NCBI RefSeq assembly: GCF_011745625.1
Contig: NW_027191453.1
Location: forward strand, 62,001-126,000
DNA from: Cladosporium halotolerans
Taxonomy: Eukaryota
Length of the DNA stretch: 64,000 nt
Direction of reading: 5' to 3'
The translations under genes and the position numbers were made by a program. Below, piece by piece: positions 6,061 through 56,268 of this stretch (within the stretch, counting starts at the first letter, position 1; the number at the start of each line of letters is the position of its first letter). A model generated the notes under the pieces. The model saw nothing but the letters and a program-made list of their open reading frames with translations, did no database searches and had not been told where the DNA came from.

Positions 6061-6438
6061 GGTTCCGGCTTGTATGACAGAAAAGTGACGGTGATGAACG
6101 CCTGTGTTTCGGTGACCGCAAAAGATCGCGCTGCCAGTCACGCCATATGTTTCACAAGTATACGAGACTCATCATTAATAATATTCTGGAAGGCTTTGGC
6201 TACTTCCCAAATATTCTTCGGTGCGATTGCAGTGTCTGACATCCCTGGCCCGTGCACTTGCCCTTGAGGCTTTTGTGCTTTCGCAACCCCATTGGTGTTG
6301 AGCGTATTTGCGCGCTTTGTGCGTGTGGCAACCGGCAGTACAAGGGCGCTTCGTACAGCAAGCTTGCAATAAAGAAGTTCAAGCCAGCCGGCTGCTCCTG
6401 TTACGCCGGTATTCACAAACTGAATCTACGAACAAAAG

Positions 6439-9400
6439 ATGGCGTCGTTCTCATCAGCCTCAGGGCCGACGCCCATCTGCACGTCTTTCCTCATCCCGAA
6501 TCTGCATTGCCCGACATGCGTTAGCCACGTAACTTCTGTGGTTAATGGCCTCAACACAAACGCTGTCGTCTCGGACTGTTCGATTGTCAATCACATCGTC
6601 ACCATCGCACACGGGAGGAATGTGTCGGTGCAGCTTCTCGGTGAAACACTGACATCGGCCGGCTATGAAATCTTCGACACTATATGGGATCCCACGCTCG
6701 ACGAGAAAACCTCGCGTCCGGCCGTTCAAGATGCCCGGTTGGAAGAAGCAGTGCAGCGATGGGATCCCCGGCGACATTCTCAAGTGGACGAAGCCACACG
6801 TCTGCTCCATGACGCCAATTGCGAAATGTGCGCGTCCAGTGGGCACGCGAACTTGGAGTCTGTGACCAGCACAGATACAGGTGCGACTCGACCTGAATTT
6901 ATTGCCACGCTGTCTGTTGAGGGAATGACCTGCAGCTCCTGTGTGGGCAATGTCACCAAAGCGCTTCAAGCGATCGAGAATGTCCAGCAGGCCAACGTTT
7001 CTTTGATCGGACATAGCGCAGATGTACGATTCTCAGCGGAAGACCCCGACATATACGCCAAACAGTTCGTTGAAGCGATCGAAGACGTCGGATATGACGC
7101 GCAACTGATCGAAGTGAGGCCAGCGAATGTCAAGGACAGCACGAAGACAGACTCGAAGGAAGGATCAGAAGTCGCTGCTCAAAGGACGATATCACTTCGG
7201 ATTGAAGGCATGCATTGCTCGCGGTGTCCAGTGCGTGTACTTGACGCAGTGCGTGGTATGGACGTCGACATCAAGGATCATCCGACCCTGGACTCGCCAA
7301 TTCTGACACTCTCGTATGTGCCCGTTACACCCAAATTGACGATCAGGCGCATCATCGACGAGATTGGCGCACTCGACCCATCCTTCACGATTACGATTCA
7401 CAAGCCGAAATCAGTGGAGCAGCGCTCCCGAGAAATGCTTGCAAAGGAGCGAAGAGCAATCTTCTTGCGCGCGCTGTTCTCAACAATCACTGCCATTCCG
7501 ACTCTTATTATCGGCGTCATATACATGAATTTGGTACCAAAACACGATCCTGGGTATATGTTCATGATGCACCGTTTGCACGGTGTCAGCCGAGCAGAAT
7601 GGGCAACCTTTGCGATGGCGACTCCGGTCTATTTCTTCGCTACCGATCACTTCCACAGACGCACACTCAAGGAATTGTATGCGCTTTGGGGGCCACGCAG
7701 CCCAGCACCAATTTTCAAGCGGTTCTACCGCTTCGGCAGCATGAACATGCTTGTCAGCTTGGGCACGACAATCGCTTTCTGCTCGTCGCTAGTTGAATTG
7801 ATCGTCACTGCGTCGCATCCTTCTGAGGACCTGATCGGAAGCTCGAAGAAGTCGTATTTCGACTCTGTCGTTTTCCTCACGATGTTTCTGCTCCTGGGAC
7901 GGCTGGCCGAAGCCCAAATGAAGGCCAAGTCTGGTGATGCGATCTCGGCTTTGGGCAACCTGCGGCCCACTGAGGCTAGCTTGGTCACATTGAAAGATGG
8001 AGATGTCTCAAACATCGAGACGATGAATGTGGACTTTATCGAGACTGGTGATTTGATCAGGATCCCTCACGGCTCGAGTCCGCCCTGCGATGGTGTCGTG
8101 CTGGATGAGAAGGCCAGCTTTGACGAGTCGAGTCTGACGGGAGAGTCTCGTCTGGTCACCAAACAGAAAGACGACTCGGTCTATTCCGGTACTATCAACA
8201 AAGGTGCGGCCATAACGATCCGTGTCACTGGTCCCGCCGGTGCATCTATGCTGGACTCGATCATCAGCGTGGTCCGTGAAGGCCAATCCAAGCGCGCACC
8301 GATGGAGCGCATCGCGGACTTGCTTACGGCCTATTTCGTACCTGTCATCGTACTGATTGCCATCATAACATGGATGGTCTGGCTTTCACTCGGTCTATCC
8401 GGAGCGCTTCCACATAGCTACCTTGATAATGACGTCGGAGGCTGGCCATTCTGGTCACTGCAATTCGCCATTGCAGTCTTTGTCATAGCGTGCCCTTGCG
8501 GACTAGGTCTGGCTGCCCCGACTGCATTGTTTGTGGGAGGTGGGTTGGCGGCAAAGCGCGGCATCCTCGTCAAAGGCGGAGGTGAAGCTTTCCAGGAAGC
8601 AAGCACAATGGACGCCGTCGTCTTCGACAAGACCGGCACCTTGACGGAAGGGCTCGAGCCGAAGATCGCAGAGCACCAAGTCGTCGATAGCGGGTCTGGG
8701 CTGGACCGTGCAATCGTCCTGGGCGTGCTTAGGAGCGTCGAGCAAAACAGCAGTCACCCACTCGCCAAAGCGGCCGTCAACTTTGTGAATGCTGAAGGAG
8801 ATGCTGCAACGGTCAGTGTGTCCGCTGCTGATGAGATTGCGGGCAGAGGTCTGAAAGCAAGCTTTGATCTGGCTGGCAGCGGTGGGAAAACCCAGTACGA
8901 GGCTCTGGTCGGCAACGAAGGCTTAATGCGAGACTACGGCGTCGAAGTCTCTTCGACAACGGCCGAGCTACTGAGTTCTTGGAAGTCAAGTGGCTACTCG
9001 GTGATACTCCTGGCCTGCCGTGAAACTGGTAACCAATGGCGAATGGAGGCAGCCTTCGCCGCGTCAGACCCGCTCCGTCCTGAAGCAGCAGAAGTAGTCA
9101 GATCTTTACGGGCCCAAGGTGTCGAAGTTTGGATGCTCTCCGGCGACAACCCTGGTACTGCGATTGCGGTGGGTAAGCAAGTTGGAATTCCGCCTGACAA
9201 CATCATCGCAGGCGTCCTCCCTGCTCAGAAGGCCGACAAGGTCAAGTACCTGATGCAATCGCTCAAGCCGAGGCGCGGGATCGGGTTCCAGAGCATTCTG
9301 AGCAATAAGCGGAACAGAGCCACGGTCGCGATGGTCGGCGACGGCATCAACGATGCCCCAGCTCTGGCAGCAGCAGACATCGGCATCGCCGTAGCTTCCG

Positions 9401-9723
9401 GCTCGGACGTCGCGGTACAATCCGCGTCTTTCGTACTGGTCCACTCCGATCTGAGAGCTGTGCTCACGCTGGTGTCGTTGAGCCGCGTTGTCTTCCGGCG
9501 AGTCATCCTCAACTTCTTTTGGGCTGCCCTCTACAACATGATCGCCCTCCCCGTGGCGGCCGGCGTGCTCTATCCGGTGAAGACGTCGTCGGGCAACCAT
9601 ATCCGCCTGGATCCGGCTTGGGCGGCGCTCGCGATGGCGTTGAGCAGCATCTCGGTTGTGGCAAGTAGTTTGCTGCTGAGGACAAGAGTGTTTGGGCTGG
9701 GTTTCCGGGAGGAGTCGGGATGA
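6439..9723 (+). CDS. Copper-transporting P1B-type ATPase (intronless)
   Basis: HMA CxxC motifs (LHCPTC, GMTCSSC, GMHCSRC), TGES actuator, CPC in TM6, DKTGT phosphorylation site, SSHP, GDGIND hinge, YN and MxxSS Cu(+) ligands. Confidence 0.96.
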   Translation: MASFSSASGPTPICTSFLIPNLHCPTCVSHVTSVVNGLNTNAVVSDCSIVNHIVTIAHGRNVSVQLLGETLTSAGYEIFDTIWDPTLDEKTSRPAVQDARLEEAVQRWDPRRHSQVDEATRLLHDANCEMCASSGHANLESVTSTDTGATRPEFIATLSVEGMTCSSCVGNVTKALQAIENVQQANVSLIGHSADVRFSAEDPDIYAKQFVEAIEDVGYDAQLIEVRPANVKDSTKTDSKEGSEVAAQRTISLRIEGMHCSRCPVRVLDAVRGMDVDIKDHPTLDSPILTLSYVPVTPKLTIRRIIDEIGALDPSFTITIHKPKSVEQRSREMLAKERRAIFLRALFSTITAIPTLIIGVIYMNLVPKHDPGYMFMMHRLHGVSRAEWATFAMATPVYFFATDHFHRRTLKELYALWGPRSPAPIFKRFYRFGSMNMLVSLGTTIAFCSSLVELIVTASHPSEDLIGSSKKSYFDSVVFLTMFLLLGRLAEAQMKAKSGDAISALGNLRPTEASLVTLKDGDVSNIETMNVDFIETGDLIRIPHGSSPPCDGVVLDEKASFDESSLTGESRLVTKQKDDSVYSGTINKGAAITIRVTGPAGASMLDSIISVVREGQSKRAPMERIADLLTAYFVPVIVLIAIITWMVWLSLGLSGALPHSYLDNDVGGWPFWSLQFAIAVFVIACPCGLGLAAPTALFVGGGLAAKRGILVKGGGEAFQEASTMDAVVFDKTGTLTEGLEPKIAEHQVVDSGSGLDRAIVLGVLRSVEQNSSHPLAKAAVNFVNAEGDAATVSVSAADEIAGRGLKASFDLAGSGGKTQYEALVGNEGLMRDYGVEVSSTTAELLSSWKSSGYSVILLACRETGNQWRMEAAFAASDPLRPEAAEVVRSLRAQGVEVWMLSGDNPGTAIAVGKQVGIPPDNIIAGVLPAQKADKVKYLMQSLKPRRGIGFQSILSNKRNRATVAMVGDGINDAPALAAADIGIAVASGSDVAVQSASFVLVHSDLRAVLTLVSLSRVVFRRVILNFFWAALYNMIALPVAAGVLYPVKTSSGNHIRLDPAWAALAMALSSISVVASSLLLRTRVFGLGFREESG

Positions 9724-11589: not shown

Positions 11590-14500
11590 ATGTCTGGGGA
11601 CTATATCGCGCCATCCGCCGTCGCGGGCAGAAGCTCGTTCCGTTACAGGACCGAGGGCAGCAGAGAGCGAGAGGCTCTTCGGTGCGCCTGCTGCGGTCCG
11701 CGATGTTGGCCAGATTCGCTAACCAGGCCACAGCTATCTGCACTCGTGGATCGAGCTCTACAAACCGCCCTACATCCGCCGCAATGCATTTCCCACCGCC
11801 CACTCTATGCCAGTGCCGTCAGCATGCCACGATACTGCCCTCGCCGCATTTGCGCAATTAGCCACCCTCCGCCTTGGCGCTCGCAGAGCATTCATCACGA
11901 TCCTTTCCACGCACACAGAACACGTCTTAGTCGAATCTACGCGATCGATGTCTTTGCAATCCGACTTTGTCGCAGACTCCAAAGATGAAAGCTGGCTGGG
12001 AACATGTTGTTTCCCAAGGACAGATGGAATAAACGACATGACTCTGGACTCGTGGCGCAAAGCACGTTCTCCAAGGCAAGCGCCCGAGGACCAAGATTTC
12101 TACTATACTGAGGGTGTTTCAGAGCATTGGCATATAGTCAGCGATTTGAGACTTCACTCAAATGCGGCGCAGCGTGCGTTCGTTCAACGGGCGCCTTCAC
12201 CGCGGTTCTACTTCTCAATACCTTTGCGCGATCAAGAGGGAACTGTCATCGGTAGTTTGTCCATCCTAGACGACAGACCCAGGTATGGAATTAGTGCAAC
12301 AGAAATGTCATACTGCGAAGACTTAAGCGACACCATAACACAGCACCTTCAAAGTTCTATTTTCAGGTCTCAGAGACAGCGTAGCGAACGACTCATCCAA
12401 GCTCTGGGCGTTTTCAACAACGGTGGAACTTCACTCCGAGACTGGTGGATCGGTCAAGACAGCTCGAGCATGAGCAGGGGCGGTCGTCAGGAGAGAGACA
12501 GGACGGAGGGAGAAAAGGACTCCAGGTTCGATTCTGAGTTCGGAAAGGAAGAGAGCCCACCTTCCCACGAAACAGCGTCGAGGTATGGGGCATCGCGTAC
12601 CCCCGATCAGCACCACAAATCGGCTCGATCAGCTGGCGAGGAAAACAAGCAAGCAGAGAACGAGCGCATGGTGAATGGCGTTGCTGGTGAGGACTTCAGT
12701 CGTCCTACTAATACTGCATCAAACGCGGCTCCCACAAATGATGATGGTGGAGCATCGTCAGATGATGCTGACACCATGTCTTCACGTTCTGGAAAGAGCG
12801 AGAAGGGCGCGCGGGCCTTTGACTTGACCAGCCAAATAGACCAAGCGTACAGCCGCGCAAGCAAACTCCTGCGTGAATCATTAGGTGCTTCAGGGGTGGC
12901 ATTCGTCGATGCAAATACCCTCTCATCGAATCGATTGAACGATCAGCTCACCTCATCGGGATCATCTGATGACAATCGAGCGCTCCCAAGTAGTGACACG
13001 GATCACTCCGATAGCTCGAATTCGCTATACAAAAAATGCAAGCTTGCCGCAATTACAACGCAAGCCCGATCTGACGGAGGACGTTCCGCCTCATTCGAGC
13101 TTTCCGAGAAAGACTTGGCCAGAATGATCAAGTCTGGAGCCAAAGTGTTTTCGTTCATGGAAGATGGAAGCGCTTATTCTGGATCAGAAGGGAGTGCAGG
13201 CTCAGGTGCTTCGAGTGAGGCTATCTCTGCGGATGACGGATCTAAGCCGCGAATTCAGGCAAAACGTAACCGGAACGCTCGCAAGCTCAGGAAGGCGGTG
13301 GGCGATGCTGGTTCCATTGCTTTTTATCCTATTTGGGATGTAGGTCTCATTTCATCACGCATTAATTGGCCGCACAGACTCTAACCACTCTCAAGGACAA
13401 TCGGGGACGCTGGAGGGCCGCCCTCGTTGTATGGACCACATCCAACGGTCGATTTTTCCATCCGGAAGAAGACATCACCTACTTGTCAGCATTCAGTCAC
13501 AGTTTACGAGCAGAACTTGCACGAATTGAAACAATGGCGTCGGACATCGCTAAAGGGAAGTTTATATCATCCGTCAGCCATGAGCTTCGTAGCCCTCTTC
13601 ACGGCATCCTGGCTGGGATTGAACTCATCCAGGATTCCCAATTGACTGCTTTCCAATCAGAGATGGCTTCTTCGGTGGCGCTTGCCGGGAGAACTCTCCT
13701 CGACACGTAAAATTTTCTCATCATTCTCAATTGGCATAGCTAATTCTCGTTAGGGTTGATCACATCCTGGACTACAGCAAGATTAGCAATCTATCTCGTG
13801 GGCAGAAGAAGGATCGGGCAAGAATTGATGCAATGAGGCATAAGTCCACCGAAAGCATAACTGGCAGCGGCTTGATCAACGTCGACCTTGCATGCCTTAC
13901 GGAAGAGTATGGTTCCACGAATTTACGATGAATGCATTTGCATCAATCTAACTTCGCACAGAGTGACTGAGAGTACCGTCTCCAGTTTTCGTCATCTGAA
14001 AAGGCTTGCGAGAGACGCAGAGTCTCCTGATGAGTCTGACGACCACGCCGTGTCGGTGGCACTTGAGATTCAAAACCGCGAGACTTGGAAGACTCCAATG
14101 ACGCCTGGCATCATGACAAGGCTTATCTCTAACATCCTAGGTGAGAACAGACCTTGTGAAAAGCCTTTTCCGCCCGCTGACCACCCTCTCCATCTCAACA
14201 GGAAACGCACTGAAATACACCCAAAAGGGTGTCGTGTTGGTCAAGCTCTTCACCGATAATGAGATGAGTGAAGGCCAAAGTCCCGATCAGGGTGTCTTCG
14301 TGAATCTTCAGATTCAAGACACTGGAATTGGCATGTCAAGGCACTTCTTGGATTCTGATCTGTTTACGGCTTTCAGACAAGCAAATCCTCATGCCCCAGG
14401 GAGTGGTCTTGGCTTGAGCATCGTGAAAGAAGTGGCGAAAGAGCTGAATGCTTCGGTCACTACGAAAAGCGAGCTTGGAAAAGGCACCAGTATACTCGTC

Positions 14501-16020
14501 AGATTCCTGGCACACTTCAACAAGCAAGACACCCCTGAGTTCGATGCGAGAAGCCATCATGTGACGCAAACGACTTCGATCTCGCAAACTCACTTCCGCA
14601 TGCTGAACATGCGTACGCAGACACCGGACGTGCAGGCAACAGGTGCCAGCACTTTCGCTGAAAGCGTCCTCCGAACAGCATCACAATGGCTCCATTGCGA
14701 GATTTCTTTCTCGGACGACGTCTCGTCCTGCCCTCCAGGCACGGTCTGCGCGATTTCAGAGAAAGATCTCCTCATGATGTACGAGACAGACTCAACTGCT
14801 GTCGAGAGATTGATGTCAGATCTAGCTTCTGCAGGCGCTCAGATACTGGTGCTGTCACAGTCTGTAAATTCTGTGAAGCCAGCTTTCGACTTCGAGCGCT
14901 TTCCACTCAGACCTCTATACATCTACCAGCCGTAAGTTCACTCGACGCATTGCCTTGTGGTCCAGTTGCCACGACTTCGACAAAACACTTCGCTAACTAG
15001 TGTGCAGTATTGGCCCGCAGAAGCTGCTTCGTGTGATCAACAATGTCCAGGACTCCATTATGACGCGACAGCCGAACGATTATGCGACTCGAGCACTCAA
15101 TACGCCTCACATGATCAGAGGTGACTTAGGCCGACGTACGAGCGACGAAGATATCCTATCTCCTCTCAGCCCCAGATTTGCGCATCAGCCGGATACGTCA
15201 TCGAAGTCGCGCTCTGGTCGAACAAAATCAATGCCGGTCATCAATGAACCACTCGACAATTTTGAACAAAGCTCCGACGCAACAGACACTTCCGCTGTGA
15301 TGCCCTTGCGGACCCGACCCAAGTCGCCCATGAGGCCAGGACAAGTCGTGCTTTTAGTTGAAGACAACGATATCAACATGAGAGTAAGTCGAGGCTCCCG
15401 TCACCGAACCTTTCTTGGAACATTGTAGCGACTGGTACTACCATGACCAAGCTACTTGAGCCATTCTCATGCTTCTAACGCTGACTGTCATTCTTCCTTA
15501 GCTGCTATTGGCTCTCATGAAGAAGCTCAAGCTACCCTGTGAAAGCGCCGTCAACGGCCTCGAAGCACTCGAGAAATATCAAGCAGCACCGATGCAGTAT
15601 TTCCTGATTCTCATGGATATGGGTACGACTCCATTAGATTGCTCCCCTCACAGACTGTTCACTGACTCATGCCGCAGTATGCAATCCCTTTGGAAACGAT
15701 CATCCGGGCTCACTGGAATTGTGGCGGATGCTACATCCAGCTGGGTCGAGACTTCCTTTTTGTCGCCCCAAAATAAATGTTATATTGAAGCTGACTCACC
15801 ACACTAGAACATGCCGGTAATGGACGGGTTCGAAGCCACAAATAAAATTCGAGAACTAGAGCGCAAAGAGAAACTTCGCAAGGTCTATATCGCCGCCGTC
15901 ACCGGCGTCACGAACATGGAGTCGAAGCAAAGCGCCAAGAGCGCTGGCGTGGACAGATATGTCACAAAACCCATACGGATGAAGGACCTCACATCTTTGA
16001 TCGATGAGGTCAAGGAGTAA
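11590..16020 (+). CDS. Hybrid sensor histidine kinase (GAF-like - HisKA - HATPase - receiver), multi-exon
   Basis: H-box SVSHELRSPLHGI, N-box GNALKYT, G1 DTGIGM, G2 GSGLGLSIV, receiver LLVEDNDIN...LILMDMNMPVMDG...TKP. Introns approx. 11682-11733, 13340-13395, 13707-13753, 13907-13961, 14141-14201, 14932-15007, 15384-15501, 15622-15807 (nested); splicing gives one continuous frame. Confidence 0.93.
15622..15807 (+). other. Putative [D1,2] spliceosomal twin intron (stwintron) in the histidine kinase gene
   Basis: Internal intron 15623-15677 (GTACGA...ACTGAC...CAG); its removal joins G15622 to TATGC to create donor GTATGC of an external intron ending GCTGAC...TAG at 15807. Confidence 0.8.
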
Positions 16021-16627
16021 TGCTGGGGCGAAGCGATTGCTAGCGCACGACTGGATTACGCATGACAGTACACATGCCCCGGTGGCATCTGGTAGTAGTA
16101 CAGAAGATTTTCCGAACAACAGTTGGCTTGTAATGGCATTCGCCGCGTGTATTACGACCTTGTAACGATTATTTCACGGCGCAATGCTTCTCATAACAAG
16201 ACAATTTCAGATATCTAGCGGAGAAGGCGCTTCCCAACTTTTCTGAGAGAAGCGTGTTGATGGATAGAGTAGAGAGCTCTCTCTGCTCCCATGTGTACAC
16301 TATACACCAAATCGAATCGCGATCGAGTGGCAGTCGGTGTGTTGTAACGTCGGCTCGTTTGCCAAAAGATTCGATACTCAGAGGCTTAGGCTTGACTTCC
16401 TCTCGAAACATGGATCACATGAAATTTCGAAGAATAAGGAGTAAATTTTTGATTAACGTTATGCAAGTCTAATAGGTTGTACCTGGGTAGTATCAAAAAG
16501 CGGCCATCTTGTCCACATATACATAGCTTCTCCCTCCGCGCATCGAACTACCATTAGTGTTTCATGTTTGCCTTTACCACAAGCAGTCATTAGTCGTCAG
16601 CCAAGCGATCCGTGTGGGTTGCGCTCA

Positions 16628-18848
16628 TCACAACCCAGAATCGATTTGCTCGACCACATTGTCGCCGGTCCAAGCCGCCCAGTCACGGCAGGTCTGCGCA
16701 ACGGTCGACGGGAGCTTGATCTTCCGGATTTCTTCAGGGTACGAGAGGGCGTTCACGTAGAGGCCACCTGACATGTGCCATGCAACGTGACAATGGAAAG
16801 CTATGCACACGTTAGCATCATGACGTGTCTGTACCATTAGAATGCGTCGATGAAACTTACGCCAGACGCCAGGGTTGTCAGCCTCGATCTGCAGGACCAT
16901 ATACGCAGGTGTGCCATCGGGTTTGGCGCTGTGCAGAATGTGGACGTCACGGCGCTGAGGATTCTGGGGGTTGACGACATTGCCATCCCAAGTGCCATAG
17001 CCCTCTGCAAGCACATGCATGTTGTGACCGTGGTAGTGCATACTGCTACCGAGTCAGCTTTGATATGATGAGCCGGAGAGAAGGCTGAAACTTACGGGTG
17101 CGTGCCTGCATTGGCATGGTTGTACACGACAAGTCGAACGCTCGTTGCAGAGCCGAAGTTGAGGACGTTGTACTCGGGCTTGAAATCATCAAGGCGGCCG
17201 AGATTCGCTTCGAGCAGGATGGGATCGTTGTAGTTGGCGCGGAAGGTGCTGTTGTTCATGAACCAAAGCTTGTGCGTTCCGTTCGACTGGAAGGTAATAT
17301 CGATCTGCTTGGTCACGGCTGGGCTCGGGTCGGGAGTAATTCTGTAGTAAGGCACCGCCGCCGTGAGAGGATCGTTACTGCAGCTGTTGATCGCGGCGTC
17401 TGAGACAGCAGACTTCGTAGTTGGTATCGCAGACGTGTTCGCGTTCTGGTAGTAGATTGCTGCAACGGCCTCGGGAGAAATGCCGTCTAACAAATTGCAA
17501 CCACCTATAAAAGCGCTCTTACCAAGAGTAGATCGCATCCATACAGCGTCCGTCGGCTTGCCGGTAGCTTCGACGATGATGTCTGTTCGCTGGCCAATTC
17601 CAAGAGTGACGACGTCGACCTGATACGGAACAACGGGCACAAAGTCATTGGCAATGACCGTCATGACATGGTTGTCGATGCTGAACTTCTGCATTCCTTC
17701 CGCACCAGAGTTGATTAATCGGAGACGGTAGGTCTTGCCTGACTCGAACGAGAATTTGGAAACTCCCGCGTTGGGAGTGCAACTAGTGTCGTTGCTCTGG
17801 CATGGGTAGTTCATCTTGCCGTTGATTAGATTGTTCTGACTCATAGGTGGCGGCTTCTTTTCAGACTCGGGAGACATGACGTCCTTCACCAAGTCGTAAT
17901 AGTCGGCGTGGTACCAATCAGCCATCATGACAGGTCCGAGGTCGACGTCGTACTGGGCGTTGTCATGAGGGCCATGGATGATCATCGGGCCGAAGAGACC
18001 ACCAGCTGCTTGGGCGCTGTAGTGTGAGTGGTACCAAGATGTGCCGTAAAGGTCAGCACGGAATCTGTAGGTGAAGCTGCTTCCAGGTGCTATCGGACAC
18101 TGCATCACGGAAGGAACTCCATCAAGCCACTGTGTTTCTTTCTGCAGAAGCCCATGCCAATGAAGCGCAGTACCTTCTTGCATGGCGTTGTGCACAGTTA
18201 CTGAGATCCAGTCGCCCCAATTTGCTGTATCAAGTCAACGATGGTTCTGTCACATTGGAACATCGCCTCTCACCTTCGATTGTAGGCCCTGGGAAAGCAC
18301 CATTCACAACAATCGCGCTGCGATTGACACCGTCCGGTGATATGATCTTCTTGCTAATGGTGAAGTCGTATGAGCGCGTCATGCCGGTATGTGGAGGGTC
18401 TTTGTACGGATCGGTGTTCTCGCAAGTCCGAGGCCCCCATGGCCTGCCTTGAGGCAGAGGAGTACCATCGCCGCCGATCCATGGAGGCAATTTGTGTGCG
18501 CGAAAGGTACCCAGCTGTGACTCGCCATTTGTCTCATGCTGTGATAACTTCGGTCGCATGTCTGAGCCCCAAGGGAGCCATGCAGATCCATGACGGTACG
18601 CAGATGCACGTGGGCCACCATATGGTTCGGGAGGAGTCTCGATTTGGGTCGCTAGTCGATGTCAGTGACATCGTGGTGCATTTCGTGTGGTATTGCTTAC
18701 CATATGTATCTGTCGCAGGTGTGTTGCTGACCTTGTCTGTGGCATCGTAGGTGAAGTTCGATGCGGTTGAATTTGTTGTCGCGTAGACTGAGGAAGATGC
18801 AAATGTAGCGGCGAAAAGGGTAGCCGCTGTGAAGAAACGTCCAGCCAT
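16628..18848 (-). CDS. Secreted multicopper oxidase (ascomycete laccase), 5 exons
   Basis: Signal peptide MAGRFFTAATLFAATFASS; Cu motifs HWHG, WYHSH, HPMHYHGH, HCHVAWHMSGGL; C-terminal DSGL. Introns approx. 18652-18700, 18226-18273, 17043-17095, 16802-16860. Confidence 0.94.
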
Positions 18849-31779: not shown

Positions 31780-33903
31780 TTAGTTCCAGCCCATAGTGTT
31801 CTTGAGCACAACCTCTTCATCGCCCTTGGAGATCAGTTTACCGACCTGGTAAACCTTCTCGCCGGCCTTCTCGAGAACTTCCGTGGCCTCTTTGACCTTG
31901 CTCTCCTCAACGACGATTACCATACCAAGACCAGTGTTCCACGTCCTGGCAAATTCACGTTCACTAACACCTCCAGCCTTCTTCATCCATTTCAGCATTG
32001 GAGGCACTGGCCAGGAGCTGCAATCGATCTCCGCACCGAGATGCTTGGGCAGCATGCGCGGAATGTTGTCTTCGAGGCCACCGCCAGTGATGTGCGACAT
32101 ACCCAGAAGCAGGTCCTTGTCCACAGCGGCGAGCAGCGGCTTCACGTAAATCCTGGTCGGCGTGAGGAGCGATGCACCGACGGTCTTTGAGCTGTCCCAA
32201 GGTGCTTGGTCGCCGTACGAGAGGCCAGCTCTCTCGACGATCTTGCGCACAAGCGAGTAACCGTTCGAGTGTGCGCCGTTGCTGCCCAGACCCAGGAGGA
32301 TGTCGCCTGCCTTCATTGACTTGGTCAAGGGAAGAACTTTGCGGCCCTTCTTGAGCGCGCCAGTGGCGGCACCCGCCGCGTCGAATTCCTTGCCCTGGTA
32401 CATGCCAGGCATTTCGGCGGTCTCGCCGCCTACAAGCGCGCAACCGGCGTCGATGCAACCCCTGGCGACACCCTCAACGAAGCGGACAGCGTCAGGTACA
32501 GAAAGCTGAGAGCAGGCGTAGTAGTCCATGAAGGTGAGGGGTTCCGCTCCCTGAACGACGAGATCGTTGACGTTCATGGCAACGAGATCGATACCGACAG
32601 TGCTGAAGTCATCCATCTCGAAGGCGATTTTGAGCTTGGTGCCGACACCATCGATGGCCTGGATGAGAGTCGGGGCTTCTGCGTAGCCGGCGGCGGTGAA
32701 GTCAAAGGCACCACCGAAACCGCCAATGTCCGCATCTGCACCAGGACGGCGAGTGGACTTGACAGCGGCCTTGATGCTCTTGACGAGCTCGTTACCAGAG
32801 TCAATGGAGACGCCGGCGTCAGCGTAGGTCATGCCGGCGACTGCCTTAGCAGCTGAGTCGTCGGCAATAATAAGGCCTTCATTGGCAGGCTCGAGCAGCT
32901 TCCATTGGCAGGTGATGTTCTCCTTCTTGAACTGGTCGATCAGGTGGTTGGCAATCCCGTCAAAGTTCTCGGTGGCAAGGGCCAGGATGGTCGGTCCAGC
33001 ACCTGAAAGGCAGATACCGAGCAGACCTGGGTGAGATTTAGGGGTGACCGAGTGCAGAATTTCTGTGAGGCCGGGGATAAGGGTCTTGCGGTAGGGTTGG
33101 TGGACTCTATCTTGCATGCCGTCGTAGATCATGTCAGCTTGAGGAGGCGACTGGCCGAGAGCGGTGGTCAGAAGCGCCACTCTTTGCAAGTTGTAAATGA
33201 CATCCTGCTTTTCGTAGCTAGTCGGAAGGACGCCTCTCGCGCTCGCAGTGCTGACCTCGAACTGGGGAATGATGGCGATGCACTTGATCTCCTTGGCCCA
33301 GGGGAAACGGATGTGCCTGCCAATGTCACGAGGAGGGACAGGCGGCTTCAGGCCAGTGTCTTCGCCACCCTGTGGCGCGGGAAGAACTTCAGCGAGAGGA
33401 ATCTCCTTACGCTTCATGTCCTCAGGATCGAGTTCCTTGAGGTAGCTGCCAACAAAGCCACCGTAAAGAGCAGCGGCCACATTGTCAGGGTGTCTCTCGA
33501 TCATCAAGCAGAAATCGAGCATGCGATCCTTGCTTAGTTCAAGCTTGCCGACAGCACTACCAAGTGCGACACCAGCAACAACAGCAGCTCCAGAAGATCC
33601 CAAACCACGACCAAGAGGAATCGGGTTGACGATGTGCACGTGTGTGTTCGCGGGGAAAGCCCTTTGGTCGTGGCATCGAAGCACATACAACGCAGTCTGT
33701 GTGATCAGGTTGCGCTCCGGGTCCAGAGAAACGTCTTCCTTGCCCTCGCCCTCATAAGTGATGCGGCAGTTCAGCGGCGCATCCTTAGAAGAGGCATCGT
33801 CCAGAGTAATCTGCAGCTCCAGCCAGACCGAGAGGGCGAGTCCAATGCAGTCGAAGCCAGGCCCGATGTTGGCCGACGAGCAGGGAACCTTGATAGAGAT
33901 CAT
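31780..33903 (-). CDS. Fusion protein: homoserine kinase (Thr1) + phosphoribosylaminoimidazole (AIR) synthetase (PurM/Ade7)
   Basis: N-half: VPCSSANIGPGFD, PLGRGLGSSGAA, ERHPDN, DRVHQPYR, LSGAGPT. C-half from 32832: MTYADAGV, GGFGG, DGVGTK, GIDLVAMNVNDL, GGETAEMPG, HSNGYS, HITGGG. Single intronless 707-aa frame. Confidence 0.93.
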   Translation of the reverse strand: MISIKVPCSSANIGPGFDCIGLALSVWLELQITLDDASSKDAPLNCRITYEGEGKEDVSLDPERNLITQTALYVLRCHDQRAFPANTHVHIVNPIPLGRGLGSSGAAVVAGVALGSAVGKLELSKDRMLDFCLMIERHPDNVAAALYGGFVGSYLKELDPEDMKRKEIPLAEVLPAPQGGEDTGLKPPVPPRDIGRHIRFPWAKEIKCIAIIPQFEVSTASARGVLPTSYEKQDVIYNLQRVALLTTALGQSPPQADMIYDGMQDRVHQPYRKTLIPGLTEILHSVTPKSHPGLLGICLSGAGPTILALATENFDGIANHLIDQFKKENITCQWKLLEPANEGLIIADDSAAKAVAGMTYADAGVSIDSGNELVKSIKAAVKSTRRPGADADIGGFGGAFDFTAAGYAEAPTLIQAIDGVGTKLKIAFEMDDFSTVGIDLVAMNVNDLVVQGAEPLTFMDYYACSQLSVPDAVRFVEGVARGCIDAGCALVGGETAEMPGMYQGKEFDAAGAATGALKKGRKVLPLTKSMKAGDILLGLGSNGAHSNGYSLVRKIVERAGLSYGDQAPWDSSKTVGASLLTPTRIYVKPLLAAVDKDLLLGMSHITGGGLEDNIPRMLPKHLGAEIDCSSWPVPPMLKWMKKAGGVSEREFARTWNTGLGMVIVVEESKVKEATEVLEKAGEKVYQVGKLISKGDEEVVLKNTMGWN

Positions 33904-34242
33904 GGTGACGAGCCGGAGAGGCGCTGGCCGGAGAAAGTGGACAGAACAGTCGTGATCTCCGAAGCGGAACTATTCTGCTACGTAGTATATCGTCCAGCAA
34001 AGGACTGGAGTCCAATGGCCTCGCATGGTCCCTCATAGCGGCATCGGCCAGTCATATCCCCACAATCTTTTCTGCGCGCAGCGATCTGCAGCCAGGCTCG
34101 GTCCGCCGCAGCCCGCGTCAGAGCAGGGCATGTGAAAGCTTGAACTTTTGTGAATTGCGACACGCGACTCGGCTGGTGATAGTGTCCACAAGCACTCCTG
34201 CTCAGAACGCTAGGCTGCCTCCGAGAGACAAAGGCAGTCATC

Positions 34243-50347: not shown

Positions 50348-52713
50348 AAAGTAGCAGCGCGAGCAGCGTTAGCAACAGCAGCAACGGCGGGGACAGTTAG
50401 TGCAGGGCATGGCAGAGGCCCACGCAGACAAAGACAAGAGGCAGCAGAGCGGGACGGAAGGGCAGCACTACCGCTGCGGGCGGTCACCGGCAGAGAAAGG
50501 CTCCGCCCGAGAAGGCCCACGGAGGCGAGGAGGAGGAGCCATCGAGTGACACGCTCGCTAGCAATGCTAGCCATCGCACCATACCGCGACGGGCGGTGGA
50601 GAGCAGTGGAAGCTCACGAGTCGCGGTCTAGCGGCGGTTGAGGGCGCACAAATTTAGCATCTCCCAGGTTAACAATGGAAGTGCGCGCCCGCCGGCCCAG
50701 CGCCAGCGGTCGATCGGCGCCAACCCCGGTGCCTGCCGGCCTGGGCGCGGATGCACGAAAGCCACTCGCCCCTGAGGCTACGCCTGTTCCTGACCGTGGC
50801 GCCCGCCGCGGCGCCTGTCATCGACGCGGCACGGCGGCACACGAGGGCGATTGCTGGTTGCGAGGGATGATTATTATTGCTGAGATGGCCAGGAAAACAA
50901 GCACCACTCATCACGCGCGCATGCAGCTCGCTTGGCCGGCCAGGCGAGAAGATAAGGCACGCCTACCCGCCGGGCCTGCACGCACTGCACGCACTGCACG
51001 CCGCAGGATTCGGATGGCGCCCTGCACGCACACGTCTGCCCTATCTACCCAGGACAGCAACCACGCCGCGCCGGCCACACGGCTGCTGTCCGAGCGCGAC
51101 GAGCAAAATGCGGGCGCGGACCGATGCCAGCTGGGACTTGGGAGCTGGGAGCCTGGGAGGGAGCGGGCGTTGCGTCCCTGTCGATGATGGTGGAAATAGA
51201 AACGCACCTTGCCTTGCCTTGCCTTACACTTTCGTACAGCAATCAGAAGGTACACACTCTCGCTGCGGCCGTTCAGGGGCAGCGCTGCGAGGATGCGCCA
51301 CATACGATGGGCGCCGGCAGCCTGAATGCTTGGTACCTCAGTCCTCCCACTCCTCCTGCGCTGGCCCGCGGCCGCAGCAGCCACCCGCCCGGCAGCGCCA
51401 TCGCATTGGATGGCCGCAGACGTGAAATTTCATCTGCTCCCGCCCTGCCCGAGTCTATTATCTCGCTTCCTCGCCTGCGCGCCCGCACTCGAAGCATGCG
51501 AAACATCCCGCGCGGGTCCATCTGCTCGCTTGCCGCATGCACATATTGATTTTGTCGCGAAGGGCTGCGTGCCTGCGAGTCAGTAGTGGCGCGCGCTGCA
51601 TCCCACTGCAGCTGCTACAACGCCAGCCGAGCACGCTGTTGCAGACCCCGGGCCCATCTGTGCGCTAACGGCGCGTCTCTGCACCTCCAGTATCGTATCC
51701 CTTCTAGCGCGTCAAGCACGGTAACAATTAGACACAAGTCACCAGGCCTCCCGTTGTGCCTTATCGACCGACCCAGCGAAGGCTCCCTCAACCAGACAAG
51801 CCAAGCTGCTTTCCGCGGCGTGTCTAGCCGCAGAAGCCTATCGAGACGCGCTCATCTCACCTCGTCTCCTCGCCCGCCATTTGAGATGCGCGCGCCAATA
51901 GGGGCCGGCAAAGTCCCCCCGAGTGCGCACCGACTCTCCTCGGCCCTAGGTGGGTTTGCAGGCCGCAGATCACCGCGTAAATCGGCGGCCAAACACGAGA
52001 GCCCTGGCGCTAGCAGCCCGTCAGCCCAGCGGGCCTTCGCAGAGCCCAGCACCCCTGCTCGCCCCGAGACTCAGAAACGGCCGGCTCTGCACGCGGTCGA
52101 AGCCCGGGGTTCCTGGTCCGAAATCGTCTTGCAAAACAATGCGAGGAGTGCCTCCCGGCCTGCGGGACTCGCGGGTTGCGACATCTCGGAGCACAAACTT
52201 AGATCGTGCCAGTGGTGTGTGCCGCGTGCCATGCCTCTAAACAAAGCCCGCCCACGTAGAGGCGGCAACATGCTTTCACCCGCCCGCCGGCCTGAAGACG
52301 CCAGGCTGCTCCCTCGACGGCGCGGGTTTAGTACCTGTCGCGCATGCCACGGAAGTCTGCGCCCCCGTCGATCTAGCAAATGCTGATCTCGTCCAATTAC
52401 GTCCGCCGTGCCCGCGCCAACACCGTATCACAGACACGCGACTTCTCCTCAACGGCCGCCATGCCCTATCCGGAGCGGCCCTGCAATAGTTCATCCATAA
52501 GGATGCCGACCAGAAAGCCTGTCTGTTGCTAATAATGTTCACCCTACTCCTCGTTCTCTCCTTTCCCGCTCGCTTCCCCATTGTGACGTTTCGTCCCCAT
52601 ATCCTACCGTCTTGTACTACTAATACTCGCGACTGAAGATTCCTCCCCTCGTTTTCCCATTGCTTTACGTCGTTCGTTCTACCCGATCCCTTTACACAGA
52701 GAGACCGCCGATC

Positions 52714-55700
52714 ATGCTGCTCTCCGAGGCTGCCGGACGGCCCGTCGACACCAGCAACCTCTCTCACCTTAATGTTTGGCAAAAAGCCGTCGCCGCAAAC
52801 CCCAATGGCACCGCCTTGATTTCATACCACCAGAAAGCTGCCAACTTCCGTTGGGTCAGCAACCAACACTCCGACGACGACTTCGTGCAATGGAGCTTCG
52901 CAGACCTGGACCGCGGAGCACGCAGATTAGCAACCACCCTCAACAGCCTATCACCTATCAACCGCAGACCCATTGCTTGCTTCTGCAACAACCAGGCAGA
53001 ATGGGCCCTCCTCCTGTGGGCAGCCGCCTACCTCCACTCTCCTCTCGTACCAATCAATCCTAAGAGCGCGATTCGCAGTGATGAGGTGTCACACATGCTC
53101 AAGCTCGTCAAGCCGGTCATGATTGCGGCCCCTGACGCGGCAACCGCTAGCCAGTTGGAGGAGAGTCTGCCCAAAGAGCTTTTGGATACTATGCCTGTTA
53201 AGATCCTTCTTGCCAATCCTGATACCACAAAGACCGCCAACGAATGGCGCCTGCTCTCAGAGATCATGTCTGGAGAGCTCACACCTCCGGACACCCCGAC
53301 GGATGCGGATCCTCAGGAGACTTCGGTCATTCTGTTCACCAGCGGCACCACTTCGCTCCCCAAGCCTTGTGCCCTCTCCAGTGCAATCACCGCAAACGCG
53401 GCACTCGCATACACAGAGCCCCGCGACATTACCGCCGGCCACCGCTTCATCCTCCACCTGCCCAACTTCCACTCCTACGGTATCGGCTGGGCTCTTGGTT
53501 TCCTCCTTGTTGGAGGCACGATCATCTACCCTTCGGAGGCTTTCGAAGCGCAGGCTTCGCTGGAGTGCATTGAGAAATTCAAGGCCACTCACATGAGTTT
53601 GGTGCCCACCACCGCGCAGGCTATGATCGTTCACCCCGCTTTCTCGAAGACCGACATCAGCAGTTTGATCAGCATTGACATTAGCGGTGCCGGTGTGCTC
53701 CCCAGCGTTGTCGAGTCCTGCGAGGCTGCGCTCAAGGTTCCCGGAGGTACCAGCTACGGTATGACCGAGAGCCCGTCCACTCTCATCTGGCCGATCAGGG
53801 AAGGCCCCGTCCTGCGCAACGGTGAAGTCCTCTCCGGCAGGCCCAGCAGGGGCGCTCGCGTGAAGATCTGTGAGCCCGGAACCACCACCGTCGTCCCTCG
53901 TGGTGTGGCTGGTGAGCTCCACAACGGTGGTGTGCAGGTCATTGGCGAGTACATGGACCCCAACGTCAAGACCGACAGCTTCTACGTGGACGCAGAGGGC
54001 GCCCAGTGGATCATTACCGGAGATCAGGCTGTCATGGAGGAGGACGGCGCTGTCCGCATTTCTGGCCGTTACAAGGACATCATTATCAGAGGTGGTGAGA
54101 ACATTTCTCCTGCCAGCATCGAGGCGTGCCTCCAGAAGGCTGAGGGCGTCTACATGGCTCAGGTTGTCGGTGCTCCGGATGAGATGGCCGGTGAGGTTCC
54201 TATCGCCGTCATCGAGTCTCGCGGCGAGAAGGTCACTCCCTCAAACATCCTCAAGGACATGGCTTCTCAGGCTCTCGGCCCGGCTTTCGCTCCCAAGACT
54301 GTGATCAACCTCAAGGACGACCTGGGACTCGAGGACTGGCCCAAGACCGCTGCCGGTAAGATTCGCAAGGTTGAGTTGGCAGTCTACGTCCGTGAGTGGA
54401 TCAAGAAGAGCGAGGGTCCCGCCGTCGATGCCAGCGCCCCGACTGTCGACTCCCTCATCAGGATCTGGAAGAAGATTTCTGGTGCTGACGGCCTTCTGCC
54501 CGAGTCTACCATCAACTCTTTCGCCGACTCTCTCATGATGATGCAGCTTTCCGGCACCGTCAAGAAGGACCTCGGCAGGGACATCACCGTCGAGGACTTC
54601 AAGAACTGCGACACCATCCAGAACCAGGCCGATCTTATCGACTCCAGGCCCTCGGTGACAGCTGCCGCCAACAAGCCTCAGAGGGAGGGCCCGCCCACCC
54701 TCAAGGACATGACGTACGTTCAGGGAGATGAGAAGGCCTACGCGAGCGCTAAGGCTCTCGTTTCCGCAGAGCTGGCTGCCCTTGCACTTCCCTGGGATGA
54801 TGTCGAGGATGTTGTTCCCATGCCTGATTGGGATGCTGTTTTCGCGCACAGGTGCCGCCCTACCTCCTGGAACCTGAGATGGAGCTACCACGCGCCGTGC
54901 GGCGCTGGTGAGCTCGAGAAGGCCATGAAGGAGGTTCTGGCCTACCACCCGACTCTGAGATCTCTCGCCGTCGAGCGTGAGGACGACGTTCCTCTCCTTG
55001 TCACTGTCCGCGCGAAGCAGCCTTGGTTCAGAGCAGCTGTTACCTCCGGCCACAAGATTGAGAGCAAGGAAGCCCTTAACGACCTGCTCCTCGACCACCA
55101 GAAATACGACACCGCCTCAATGGGCGGCCCCATGTTCCGCGTTCACATTGCCAGCATCGCTGACGGCACCTCCGGTCTTGTCGTCGTGGCTTCTCACGCC
55201 ATCTGCGACATGTCCATGACCAAGCTTTGGCTCGACGACATTGTCACCATTCTTTCTGGCGAGGGCTCTCCCATCCGCCACGGCTCCTTCGCTGAGTACG
55301 CATCTGCATACAACTCCCACCGTTTCGGCACTGAGGCCACAAACGGCGTCGATTACTGGACCAACAAGCTCCAGGGCATTGGATCCGTCCCCGACAGCAC
55401 GCTCTGGCCGCCGCAGCGCACTCCCGAGTTCTTCAAGGGTAACGATTACGGCTGGCGTCGTCACGATGGTCGCCGTGCTCGCCCTACTGAGCGTCGCGTC
55501 TCGCTCTCTCAGAAAGTTGCCGCTCAGAAGGGTGTTCGCCGCATGGTCAAGTGCGACGACATCCACCGTCTGAAGTCCGAGCACGACATCCCCATCTTCA
55601 TGCTGGTCAAGGCCGCCATAGCGCTGCTCAACATCAAGCACACCGGCGGCAAGGAGGCCATCTTCGGTACTCTCAACGCAGCCCGCAACTGGCCCTTTCA

Positions 55701-56268
55701 GAGCGACTACTCCGTCCTCGAGCGCGAGGCGTACACCAGCAACCCTCTCGACATCTCCGGCTGCACCGTCGAGTACGTGCTCGACCGCATCGCCGTGCCC
55801 TTGCAGAAGAACGCCGTCAGCTTCATGCAGAACGTGAGCAAGGGCGAGGAGACCAACTCAGCGTACGCGCACGCGCCCTTCCTGCGCATCGTCGACCGCA
55901 TGCGCGACCACCTGGGCGAGGACGACCTGCGCTCCTTCGCCGAGCGCGAGGCCGACGCCGACGCCCTGCTGCCGCTCATCCGCCGCCAGTCCTTCAACTG
56001 GCTGCCCACCGCGCCCACCGCTCAGGGCCACCCCAAGGGCCTCAACATGCTGCAGATGCTGACGCGCATGGACAACGGCCTGACCATCACCGGCTTCGTC
56101 GCCGACGACAAGAAGTCCGTCGCACTCAGCTTCACCTGGGACGCCGAGCACATGACTCTCGGCGAGGCCAACATCGCCATCGACAACCTCGCCGGTCTCG
56201 TCAAGGAACTCTGCCGCGCGGAGAACTGGGACAAGAGCGTGAGGGAGATCATGGGTCTCGTCATGTAA
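52714..56268 (+). CDS. NRPS-like enzyme: acyl-CoA-ligase-type adenylation domain - carrier (T) domain - condensation-like domain
   Basis: A: FTSGTTSLPK, YGMTE, TGD, GRYKDIIIRGGENISP, PKTAAGKI. T: ADSLMMM (Ser codon 54529) and ITVEDF..TIQNQA. C: YHPTLRS and SHAICD (HHxxxD variant, ~55192). Intronless, first ATG 52714. Confidence 0.88.
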   Translation: MLLSEAAGRPVDTSNLSHLNVWQKAVAANPNGTALISYHQKAANFRWVSNQHSDDDFVQWSFADLDRGARRLATTLNSLSPINRRPIACFCNNQAEWALLLWAAAYLHSPLVPINPKSAIRSDEVSHMLKLVKPVMIAAPDAATASQLEESLPKELLDTMPVKILLANPDTTKTANEWRLLSEIMSGELTPPDTPTDADPQETSVILFTSGTTSLPKPCALSSAITANAALAYTEPRDITAGHRFILHLPNFHSYGIGWALGFLLVGGTIIYPSEAFEAQASLECIEKFKATHMSLVPTTAQAMIVHPAFSKTDISSLISIDISGAGVLPSVVESCEAALKVPGGTSYGMTESPSTLIWPIREGPVLRNGEVLSGRPSRGARVKICEPGTTTVVPRGVAGELHNGGVQVIGEYMDPNVKTDSFYVDAEGAQWIITGDQAVMEEDGAVRISGRYKDIIIRGGENISPASIEACLQKAEGVYMAQVVGAPDEMAGEVPIAVIESRGEKVTPSNILKDMASQALGPAFAPKTVINLKDDLGLEDWPKTAAGKIRKVELAVYVREWIKKSEGPAVDASAPTVDSLIRIWKKISGADGLLPESTINSFADSLMMMQLSGTVKKDLGRDITVEDFKNCDTIQNQADLIDSRPSVTAAANKPQREGPPTLKDMTYVQGDEKAYASAKALVSAELAALALPWDDVEDVVPMPDWDAVFAHRCRPTSWNLRWSYHAPCGAGELEKAMKEVLAYHPTLRSLAVEREDDVPLLVTVRAKQPWFRAAVTSGHKIESKEALNDLLLDHQKYDTASMGGPMFRVHIASIADGTSGLVVVASHAICDMSMTKLWLDDIVTILSGEGSPIRHGSFAEYASAYNSHRFGTEATNGVDYWTNKLQGIGSVPDSTLWPPQRTPEFFKGNDYGWRRHDGRRARPTERRVSLSQKVAAQKGVRRMVKCDDIHRLKSEHDIPIFMLVKAAIALLNIKHTGGKEAIFGTLNAARNWPFQSDYSVLEREAYTSNPLDISGCTVEYVLDRIAVPLQKNAVSFMQNVSKGEETNSAYAHAPFLRIVDRMRDHLGEDDLRSFAEREADADALLPLIRRQSFNWLPTAPTAQGHPKGLNMLQMLTRMDNGLTITGFVADDKKSVALSFTWDAEHMTLGEANIAIDNLAGLVKELCRAENWDKSVREIMGLVM

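Follow-up and report, generated by a model that had tools for sequence, protein, structure and literature searches.

In spliceosomal twin introns (stwintrons) of the [D1,2] type, an internal U2 intron splits an external intron's donor between nucleotides 1 and 2 (Fekete et al. 2022, PMC9024468). More than 1500 of them have been described in the Hypoxylaceae, and the same source reports that annotation software rejects 5'-GGU and that gene predictors mis-model such introns (PMC9024468). An alternative, [A2,3], route of excision needs a G right after the last acceptor (PMC9024468, PMC5639578), and in the bioDA stwintron of Sordariomycetes the internal intron alone has been lost, leaving a standard intron behind (PMC5639578). 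We describe an element at 15622-15807 on the plus strand of a 64-kb stretch of fungal DNA (the window, taken at its full length), situated within the receiver-coding part of a hybrid histidine kinase gene, and we put the probability that it is a functional [D1,2] stwintron at roughly 0.92.

The architecture of this element is identical to that of known [D1,2] stwintrons of Pezizomycotina, among them the uniquely occurring ones of Hypoxylon sp. CO27-5 and other Hypoxylaceae, those of lipS and a DHA1-antiporter gene in Aspergillus nidulans, and that of the alternative oxidase gene in Helminthosporium solani. The likeness extends to RNA, where the same two kinds of evidence as in the published cases, the fusion of the exons and the "splinter" intermediate, are found here, and to the consequence of using the distal site in one step, which likewise gives a +1 frameshift (PMC9024468). 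It differs in its host gene, here a hybrid histidine kinase, and, from the Hypoxylaceae cases, in its host lineage, a dothideomycete. Among the stwintron publications that we found none mentions a histidine kinase, and the one supplement of PMC9024468 that the search included contains none of the terms "histidine", "two-component", "sensor" and "response regulator", the other supplements lying outside it. In contrast to stwintrons that are alternatively spliced as [D1,2] or [A2,3], the element is followed by A and not G at 15808, which leaves [D1,2] as its sole route.

The multiply occurring, internally symmetrical "sister" stwintrons of the Hypoxylaceae and Xylariaceae have this [D1,2] geometry as well. 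A repeat search revealed no inverted repeats at the ends of the element, the sole inverted pair in 15560-15870 being a 9-nucleotide (nt) palindrome at 15826-15837 in the downstream exon, and the motif search described below gave no second stwintron copy within the window. The element also has no marked fold (minimum free energy -45 kcal/mol, z = -0.61 against 200 shuffles). Judged by these features, it resembles the uniquely occurring class and not the propagating sister class. A 5' splice site that is regenerated after a first step, with consecutive removal of the pieces, is also a property of recursive splicing at the ratchet points of long metazoan introns. There, all of the donor that is regenerated is downstream of the first acceptor (AG followed directly by GT) and the introns run to tens of kilobases, whereas here the first G of the donor comes from the upstream side and the whole element measures 186 nt.

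Anatomy of the element and the excisions it needs

The upstream exon closes ...CTC ATG GAT ATG at 15621 and the downstream exon opens AAC ATG CCG GTA ATG GAC GGG at 15808. Within the interval between them (Table 1), the internal intron of 55 nt is longer than the 42-nt minimum for the internal intron of a [D1,2] element and has a full donor, branch element and acceptor, with 12 nt from its branch A to its acceptor (ACTGAC to CAG); TATGCA follows from 15678. The corresponding distance in the external intron (GCTGAC to TAG) is 13 nt. The external donor, GTATGC, is present only once the internal intron has been removed, being made up of G15622 and the TATGC of 15678-15682, and the published model counts both it and the internal donor GTACGA among its 24 donor hexamers. 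An earlier reading of this DNA, made from sequence only, had described the exon ends, the two sets of 3' signals and the way in which the donor forms, and each of these statements agrees with the coordinates given here. The two branch regions also have an 8-mer, CTGACTCA, in common (15662-15669 and 15791-15798), which could be chance.

The sequence-only reading had further argued that a single GT-AG intron frameshifts the receiver. This is borne out, as removal of 15623-15807 in a single GT..AG step leaves G15622 behind and gives a +1 frameshift, the product ending in ...LILMDMEHAGNGRVRSHK and a stop codon. An exhaustive pairing of the GT and GC donors in 15560-15699 with the AG acceptors as far as 15869 gave 20 single introns that leave the frame intact, none of which retains LILMD and NMPVMDG together. 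These one-intron solutions were rejected, all 20 pairs deleting or replacing conserved receiver residues.

The model that we propose instead has two steps. In the first, the spliceosome would remove the internal intron (GTACGA, ACTGAC, CAG), which would join G15622 to TATGC and so create the donor GTATGC; in the second, the external intron of 131 nt, running from this donor through GCTGAC to the TAG at 15807, would be removed and 15621 fused to 15808 in phase 0. The predicted product, ...YFLILMDM/NMPVMDG..., has an intact receiver. A profile built from 16 homologous receivers was used to compare the possible products. The mature product aligns with it seamlessly, scoring 198.9 bits across positions 7-129 of its 132, in keeping with the earlier claim that a double excision restores the receiver around the phospho-acceptor Asp, and the products of one-step, intermediate and unspliced RNA reach 80-82 bits and end at profile positions 61-66. 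The 16 receivers come from a search with the exon encoding the HATPase domain, which returned 32 proteins, none more than 53% identical, so that the collection searched contains no model of the present gene. Half of them carry the motif D..MP.[ML][DN]G, spaced as in LILMDMNMPVMDG; examples are LILMDMSMPIMDG and LILMDMQMPIMDG. The other 16 have no D..MP motif, and 13 of these are calls in the style of open reading frames that end at the QP closing exon 14202-14931 and tell us nothing about the element.

As search pattern for [D1,2] elements we took model A of PMC9024468 and ran it over both strands of the window. It gave one match on the plus strand, at exactly 15622-15807, and no match on the minus strand. 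In 100 first-order Markov resamples the mean was 0.08 model A matches per window on both strands, a figure that counts a match anywhere in 128 kb of strand and not at a single site required by the frame; the expectation of a chance match at one such position is far smaller.

RNA and DNA contigs of relatives

Four of the 23 sequencing runs listed, X3 (labelled "DNA?") and X15, X16 and X18 (labelled "RNA?"), were aligned to 11700-16100 at a likeness threshold of 88; none of the 23 is on record as RNA, and the RNA labels are guesses. X16 and X18 come from two studies and are about 96% (69 differences in 1607 nt) and about 99% identical to the window, respectively. Both behave as complementary DNA, with the ordinary introns 13340-13395, 13907-13961, 14932-15007 and 15384-15501 skipped in each, and the last of these provides an internal control for normal splicing in the neighborhood of the element. 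The intron 13707-13753 is skipped in X16 only. At 14141-14201, X18 has a 61-nt GT..AG skip and X16 a 62-nt skip with one G between its sides (14138-14201), which is most simply a junction substitution in that relative. With the predicted first intron described below, these make up the seven ordinary introns of the gene, all of which are removed in the contigs of the two runs.

The RNA products that the sequence-only reading had predicted, a mature junction 15621^15808 and an intermediate 15622^15678, are both present in these contigs. The mature joint is found in the RNA of two relatives, in X16 with a depth of 56.9 (side 29) and in X18 with a depth of 7.53 (side 119), in the latter on a contig of 1235 nt that extends from 14444 to 16058; it is listed as running from 15620 to 15807, skipping 186 nt with GG..TA ends (both=1), which is the same product as 15621^15808. 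An RNA that lacks only the internal intron is found in one of them, X16 (depth 25.6), where the joint is listed as 15621 to 15677, skipping 55 nt with GT..AG ends (cut +1). It sits on a 190-nt contig (record 10, 15677-15836) that reads ATG-G-TATGC and continues through all of the external intron as far as the exon behind it. Four X16 records account exactly for the binned depths and none of them falls on 15622-15676; by this depth arithmetic, no X16 or X18 contig covers 15622-15676. The 185-nt joint expected from one-step splicing is not listed in the X16 or X18 contigs, which are Logan contigs, from which rare forms are dropped.

Several points weigh against a functional stwintron and set the limits of these data. 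Only a single run shows the intermediate; the RNA is that of relatives with about 96% and about 99% identity to the window, whose own strain is not represented; and the status of X16 and X18 as RNA is a guess by label, for which the removal of the ordinary introns argues. The loss of rare forms from Logan contigs means that the absence of a 185-nt joint or of unspliced RNA carries no proof. The donors of both introns, GTACGA in the internal and GTATGC in the external one, belong to the less frequent kinds, although both are on the published list. Finally, the DNA evidence on the X16 organism is indirect, and had its genome no internal intron, the "intermediate" would amount to unspliced RNA of an ordinary intron.

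This last point leads to a rival explanation, in which the DNA of the window does have the stwintron structure but the internal intron is gone from the X16 organism, leaving it an ordinary 131-nt intron, so that two-step splicing would be an extrapolation from sequence. Such a loss has a precedent in the bioDA stwintron of Sordariomycetes (PMC5639578), X16 is about 4% diverged from the window, and no DNA run labelled as the X16 organism was aligned. We nevertheless regard it as unlikely. X15 behaves as DNA, contains several variants and covers the whole element colinearly. One of its contigs carries both X16 variants, 15718 A>T and 15745 G>A, and is colinear from before 15603 to 15833, straight through the internal intron, which argues that an X16-type genome contains it. 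Neither X15 nor X3 has a listed joint with a 55-nt deletion, the more closely related X18 still has the 186-nt skip, and the gene in the window needs two steps for an intact receiver. The only insertions among the X15 variants, TCC behind 15753 and TA behind 15780, lie inside the external intron, which thus evolves as non-coding sequence.

Alternatively, the GGG at 15621-15623 could be a sequencing or assembly error for GG, the element then being an ordinary GT..AG intron of 185 nt. Errors in homopolymer length are common and one spurious G would suffice for the 185-nt intron to restore the frame, and the sequence-only reading had itself raised an assembly error at G15622. That error is excluded by X3, a DNA run from a different strain (23 differences in 4401 nt), in which three contigs cover 15604-15633 and one covers 15604-16100 with no gap or indel, confirming the GGG. 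In addition, the ATG-G-TATGC of X16, with its exact 55-nt skip, is expected only if both the extra G and a working internal intron exist, and a branch element, an acceptor and a T-ATGC would be unlikely to fall in the right place by chance (0.08 matches per 64-kb window, as above), so that we hold the error to be very improbable. Two of the X3 contigs overlap at 15604-15633, and one runs past 15633 with 21 letters unlike the window; these letters look like library adaptor and are, we assume, probably an artefact of the run.

Similarly, there is very little to recommend a single non-canonical reaction, with the element removed as a GG..AG, U12-type or other unusual intron. The mature joint taken alone does look like a GG..AG (or GG..TA) intron; what speaks against this is the existence of RNA without only 15623-15677, together with two full U2-type signal sets whose branch A residues, 12 and 13 nt from their acceptors, have normal fungal spacing, and we know of no recognised intron class with GG donors. 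Least credible, and to our minds next to negligible, is a degenerating pseudogene with a frameshifted receiver and coincidental stwintron-like signals, since the premature stop after one-step splicing that would fit it is set against eight other exons that join into an uninterrupted frame of 1259 residues, transcripts in two relatives that are fully spliced with an in-frame junction, and the receiver's score of 198.9 bits against the homolog profile.

We return to the functional [D1,2] stwintron. Its structure is shown in DNA, and we infer that the same two steps take place in the window's own strain. The anatomy and the intermediate contig both point to the internal intron being removed first, since there is no external donor until that removal has happened.

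The host kinase, an ortholog and neighboring genes

The exons, joined as in the X16 and X18 contigs, form one open frame of 1259 residues from the ATG at 11590 with no internal stop. The start codon and a first intron at 11682-11733 are assigned from a loose contig end at 11733 in X16 and X18 and from the frame. Pfam matches were obtained for HisKA in 13366-13710 (E = 1.3e-9), HATPase_c in 14141-14935 (E = 5.3e-14) and Response_reg in 15808-16017 (profile positions 51-110 of 111, E = 7.4e-10). The three domains lie on separate exons and come into a single polypeptide frame once the exons are joined, and by this predicted domain content the gene is a hybrid histidine kinase, the sensor of a fungal two-component system.

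From this placement of the domains on the exons it follows that the element splits the receiver one codon past the phospho-acceptor Asp. The codon of that residue, GAT, is at 15616-15618, and the Asp is aligned with the D of D..MP.MDG in the 16 homologs. The exon that ends in this codon and the next one encodes 40 residues and alone gives no Pfam match, because it is too short; beyond the element the frame continues as NMPVMDGFEATNKIRELE... from 15808 to a stop codon at 16018-16020.

Table 1. Coordinates of the element, its parts and its host gene (positions in the window)
Feature	Position	Strand	Details
Complete [D1,2] stwintron, 186 nt	15622-15807	+	Phase 0; ends GG..AG, starts GGT; sole match of motif model A in the window
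G1 of the split external donor	15622	+	Exon in splicing step 1, first intron base in step 2
Internal intron, 55 nt	15623-15677	+	Donor GTACGA 15623-15628; ACTGAC 15661-15666; branch A 15665; acceptor CAG 15675-15677
Rest of external intron, 130 nt (131 with G15622)	15678-15807	+	GCTGAC 15790-15795; branch A 15794; TAG 15805-15807
Hybrid histidine kinase gene	11590-16020	+	Coding sequence model of 9 exons, 1259 residues; HisKA, HATPase_c, C-terminal receiver
Ordinary GT..AG intron, 118 nt	15384-15501	+	In first receiver half; joint 15383^15502 in X16 and X18
Exon	15502-15621	+	Receiver segment LLLALMKKL...YFLILMDM; joints 15383^15502 and 15621^15808 in X16 and X18
Last exon	15808-16020	+	NMPVMDGFEAT...IDEVKE and stop; second receiver half; X16 record 11, X18 record 15

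The nearest named homolog of the kinase is from Cladosporium fusiforme (43% identity), and the neighboring Trm6 finds its nearest named homologs in Saxophila, Zasmidium, Hortaea and Zymoseptoria (60-65% identity). To judge by these homologs, the host belongs among the dothideomycetes, in the Capnodiales/Mycosphaerellales group.

The sequence-only reading had proposed that the intron position be compared in orthologous kinases. A metagenome scan for orthologous DNA allowed one such comparison, with a locus designated L001, the only one among the best 80 to match all 243 query residues of the HATPase exon (49% identity); the other 79 gave partial matches to the query at 27-46% identity. L001 encodes VLMDMNMPVMDG, including the peptide (V)LMDMNMPVMDG as in the window. 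In a gene model inferred from its sequence the M and N codons directly adjoin each other, so that the site of the stwintron is empty, and a different arrangement is found around it. The (L)MDMNMP codons stand on a micro-exon of 19 nt (within 5377-5606 of L001) between a 156-nt GT..AG intron, whose end is 10 nt upstream of the corresponding point, and a 55-nt GC..AG intron (donor GCAAGT), whose start is 9 nt downstream of it. Neither of these two positions is occupied in the window, and alignment of the introns of the window with those of L001 gave no convincing similarity.

Elsewhere in the gene, the introns of L001 after ...LRPLYVYQP and ...DNDINMR are at the positions of the window introns 14932-15007 and 15384-15501, and L001 is without the window introns that begin at 13340, 13707 and 13907. 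With two neighboring positions shared and three upstream introns missing, intron positions in this kinase gene are evidently fluid. On this comparison the stwintron looks specific to the window's lineage, and introns around the Asp codons may be subject to a single process of turnover, of which the stwintron site and the micro-exon of L001 would be two states.

The kinase gene is flanked by a heavy-metal P-type ATPase with an HMA domain (6424-9723, plus strand) and a multicopper oxidase (17092-18234, minus strand), a copper-related neighborhood. Farther along the window, a long open frame at 52624-56268 (plus strand) has AMP-binding, AMP-binding_C and Condensation domains and looks like an enzyme of the nonribosomal peptide synthetase type. 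On the minus strand at 31780-33969, a stop-to-stop frame of 729 residues contains a homoserine kinase over its full length (residues 25-368, thrB of NCBIfam, E = 2.5e-102) and, in frame after a gap of 11 residues, a full aminoimidazole ribonucleotide (AIR) synthetase (purM, residues 380-713, E = 2.5e-119). No GARS domain is present in this frame; fungal AIR synthetase is usually fused to GARS. The frame may represent a ThrB-PurM fusion gene.

A possible regulatory step and the meaning of the element

The position of the element just behind the phospho-acceptor Asp had suggested a regulatory switch to the sequence-only reading, which is speculation. The form that it could take is a second splicing step that is slow or regulated, with the stwintron gating the phosphorelay, and we think this doubtful. 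If it were so, transcripts halted at the intermediate stage would encode a receiver ending 47 residues after the Asp-Met (VCNPFG...RTCR and a stop), or would be degraded, and splicing conditions could determine how much full kinase is made relative to the receiver-less form. The depth of the intermediate in X16 (25.6) is nearly half that of the mature joint (56.9), their sum is roughly the 88.4 of the contig on the downstream exon, and a fully unspliced contig was not assembled. These depths give a weak hint of a rate-limiting second step, a hint made weaker by contig depth being a poor measure of abundance and by retained introns being common in fungal RNA sequencing.

The type of stwintron is already known, and with more than 1500 [D1,2] stwintrons in the Hypoxylaceae (PMC9024468) the present element joins an established class, as a well-supported new example that leaves our knowledge of splicing unchanged. 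It does provide an RNA-supported [D1,2] stwintron beyond the Hypoxylaceae, Xylariaceae and Aspergillus, the dominant cases in the literature, and its host is a signalling gene in a dothideomycete lineage without a close annotated genome. Since gene callers reject 5'-GGU (PMC9024468), the receiver of this kinase can be expected to be mis-modelled, and automatic callers would truncate or frameshift it or lose the conserved NMPVMDG segment; the structure in Table 1 is the one that we take to be correct. Together, relatives at 96-99% identity that carry the stwintron and the micro-exon arrangement of L001 may offer a small natural system in which the gain, loss or shift of introns at a strongly conserved peptide could be followed.

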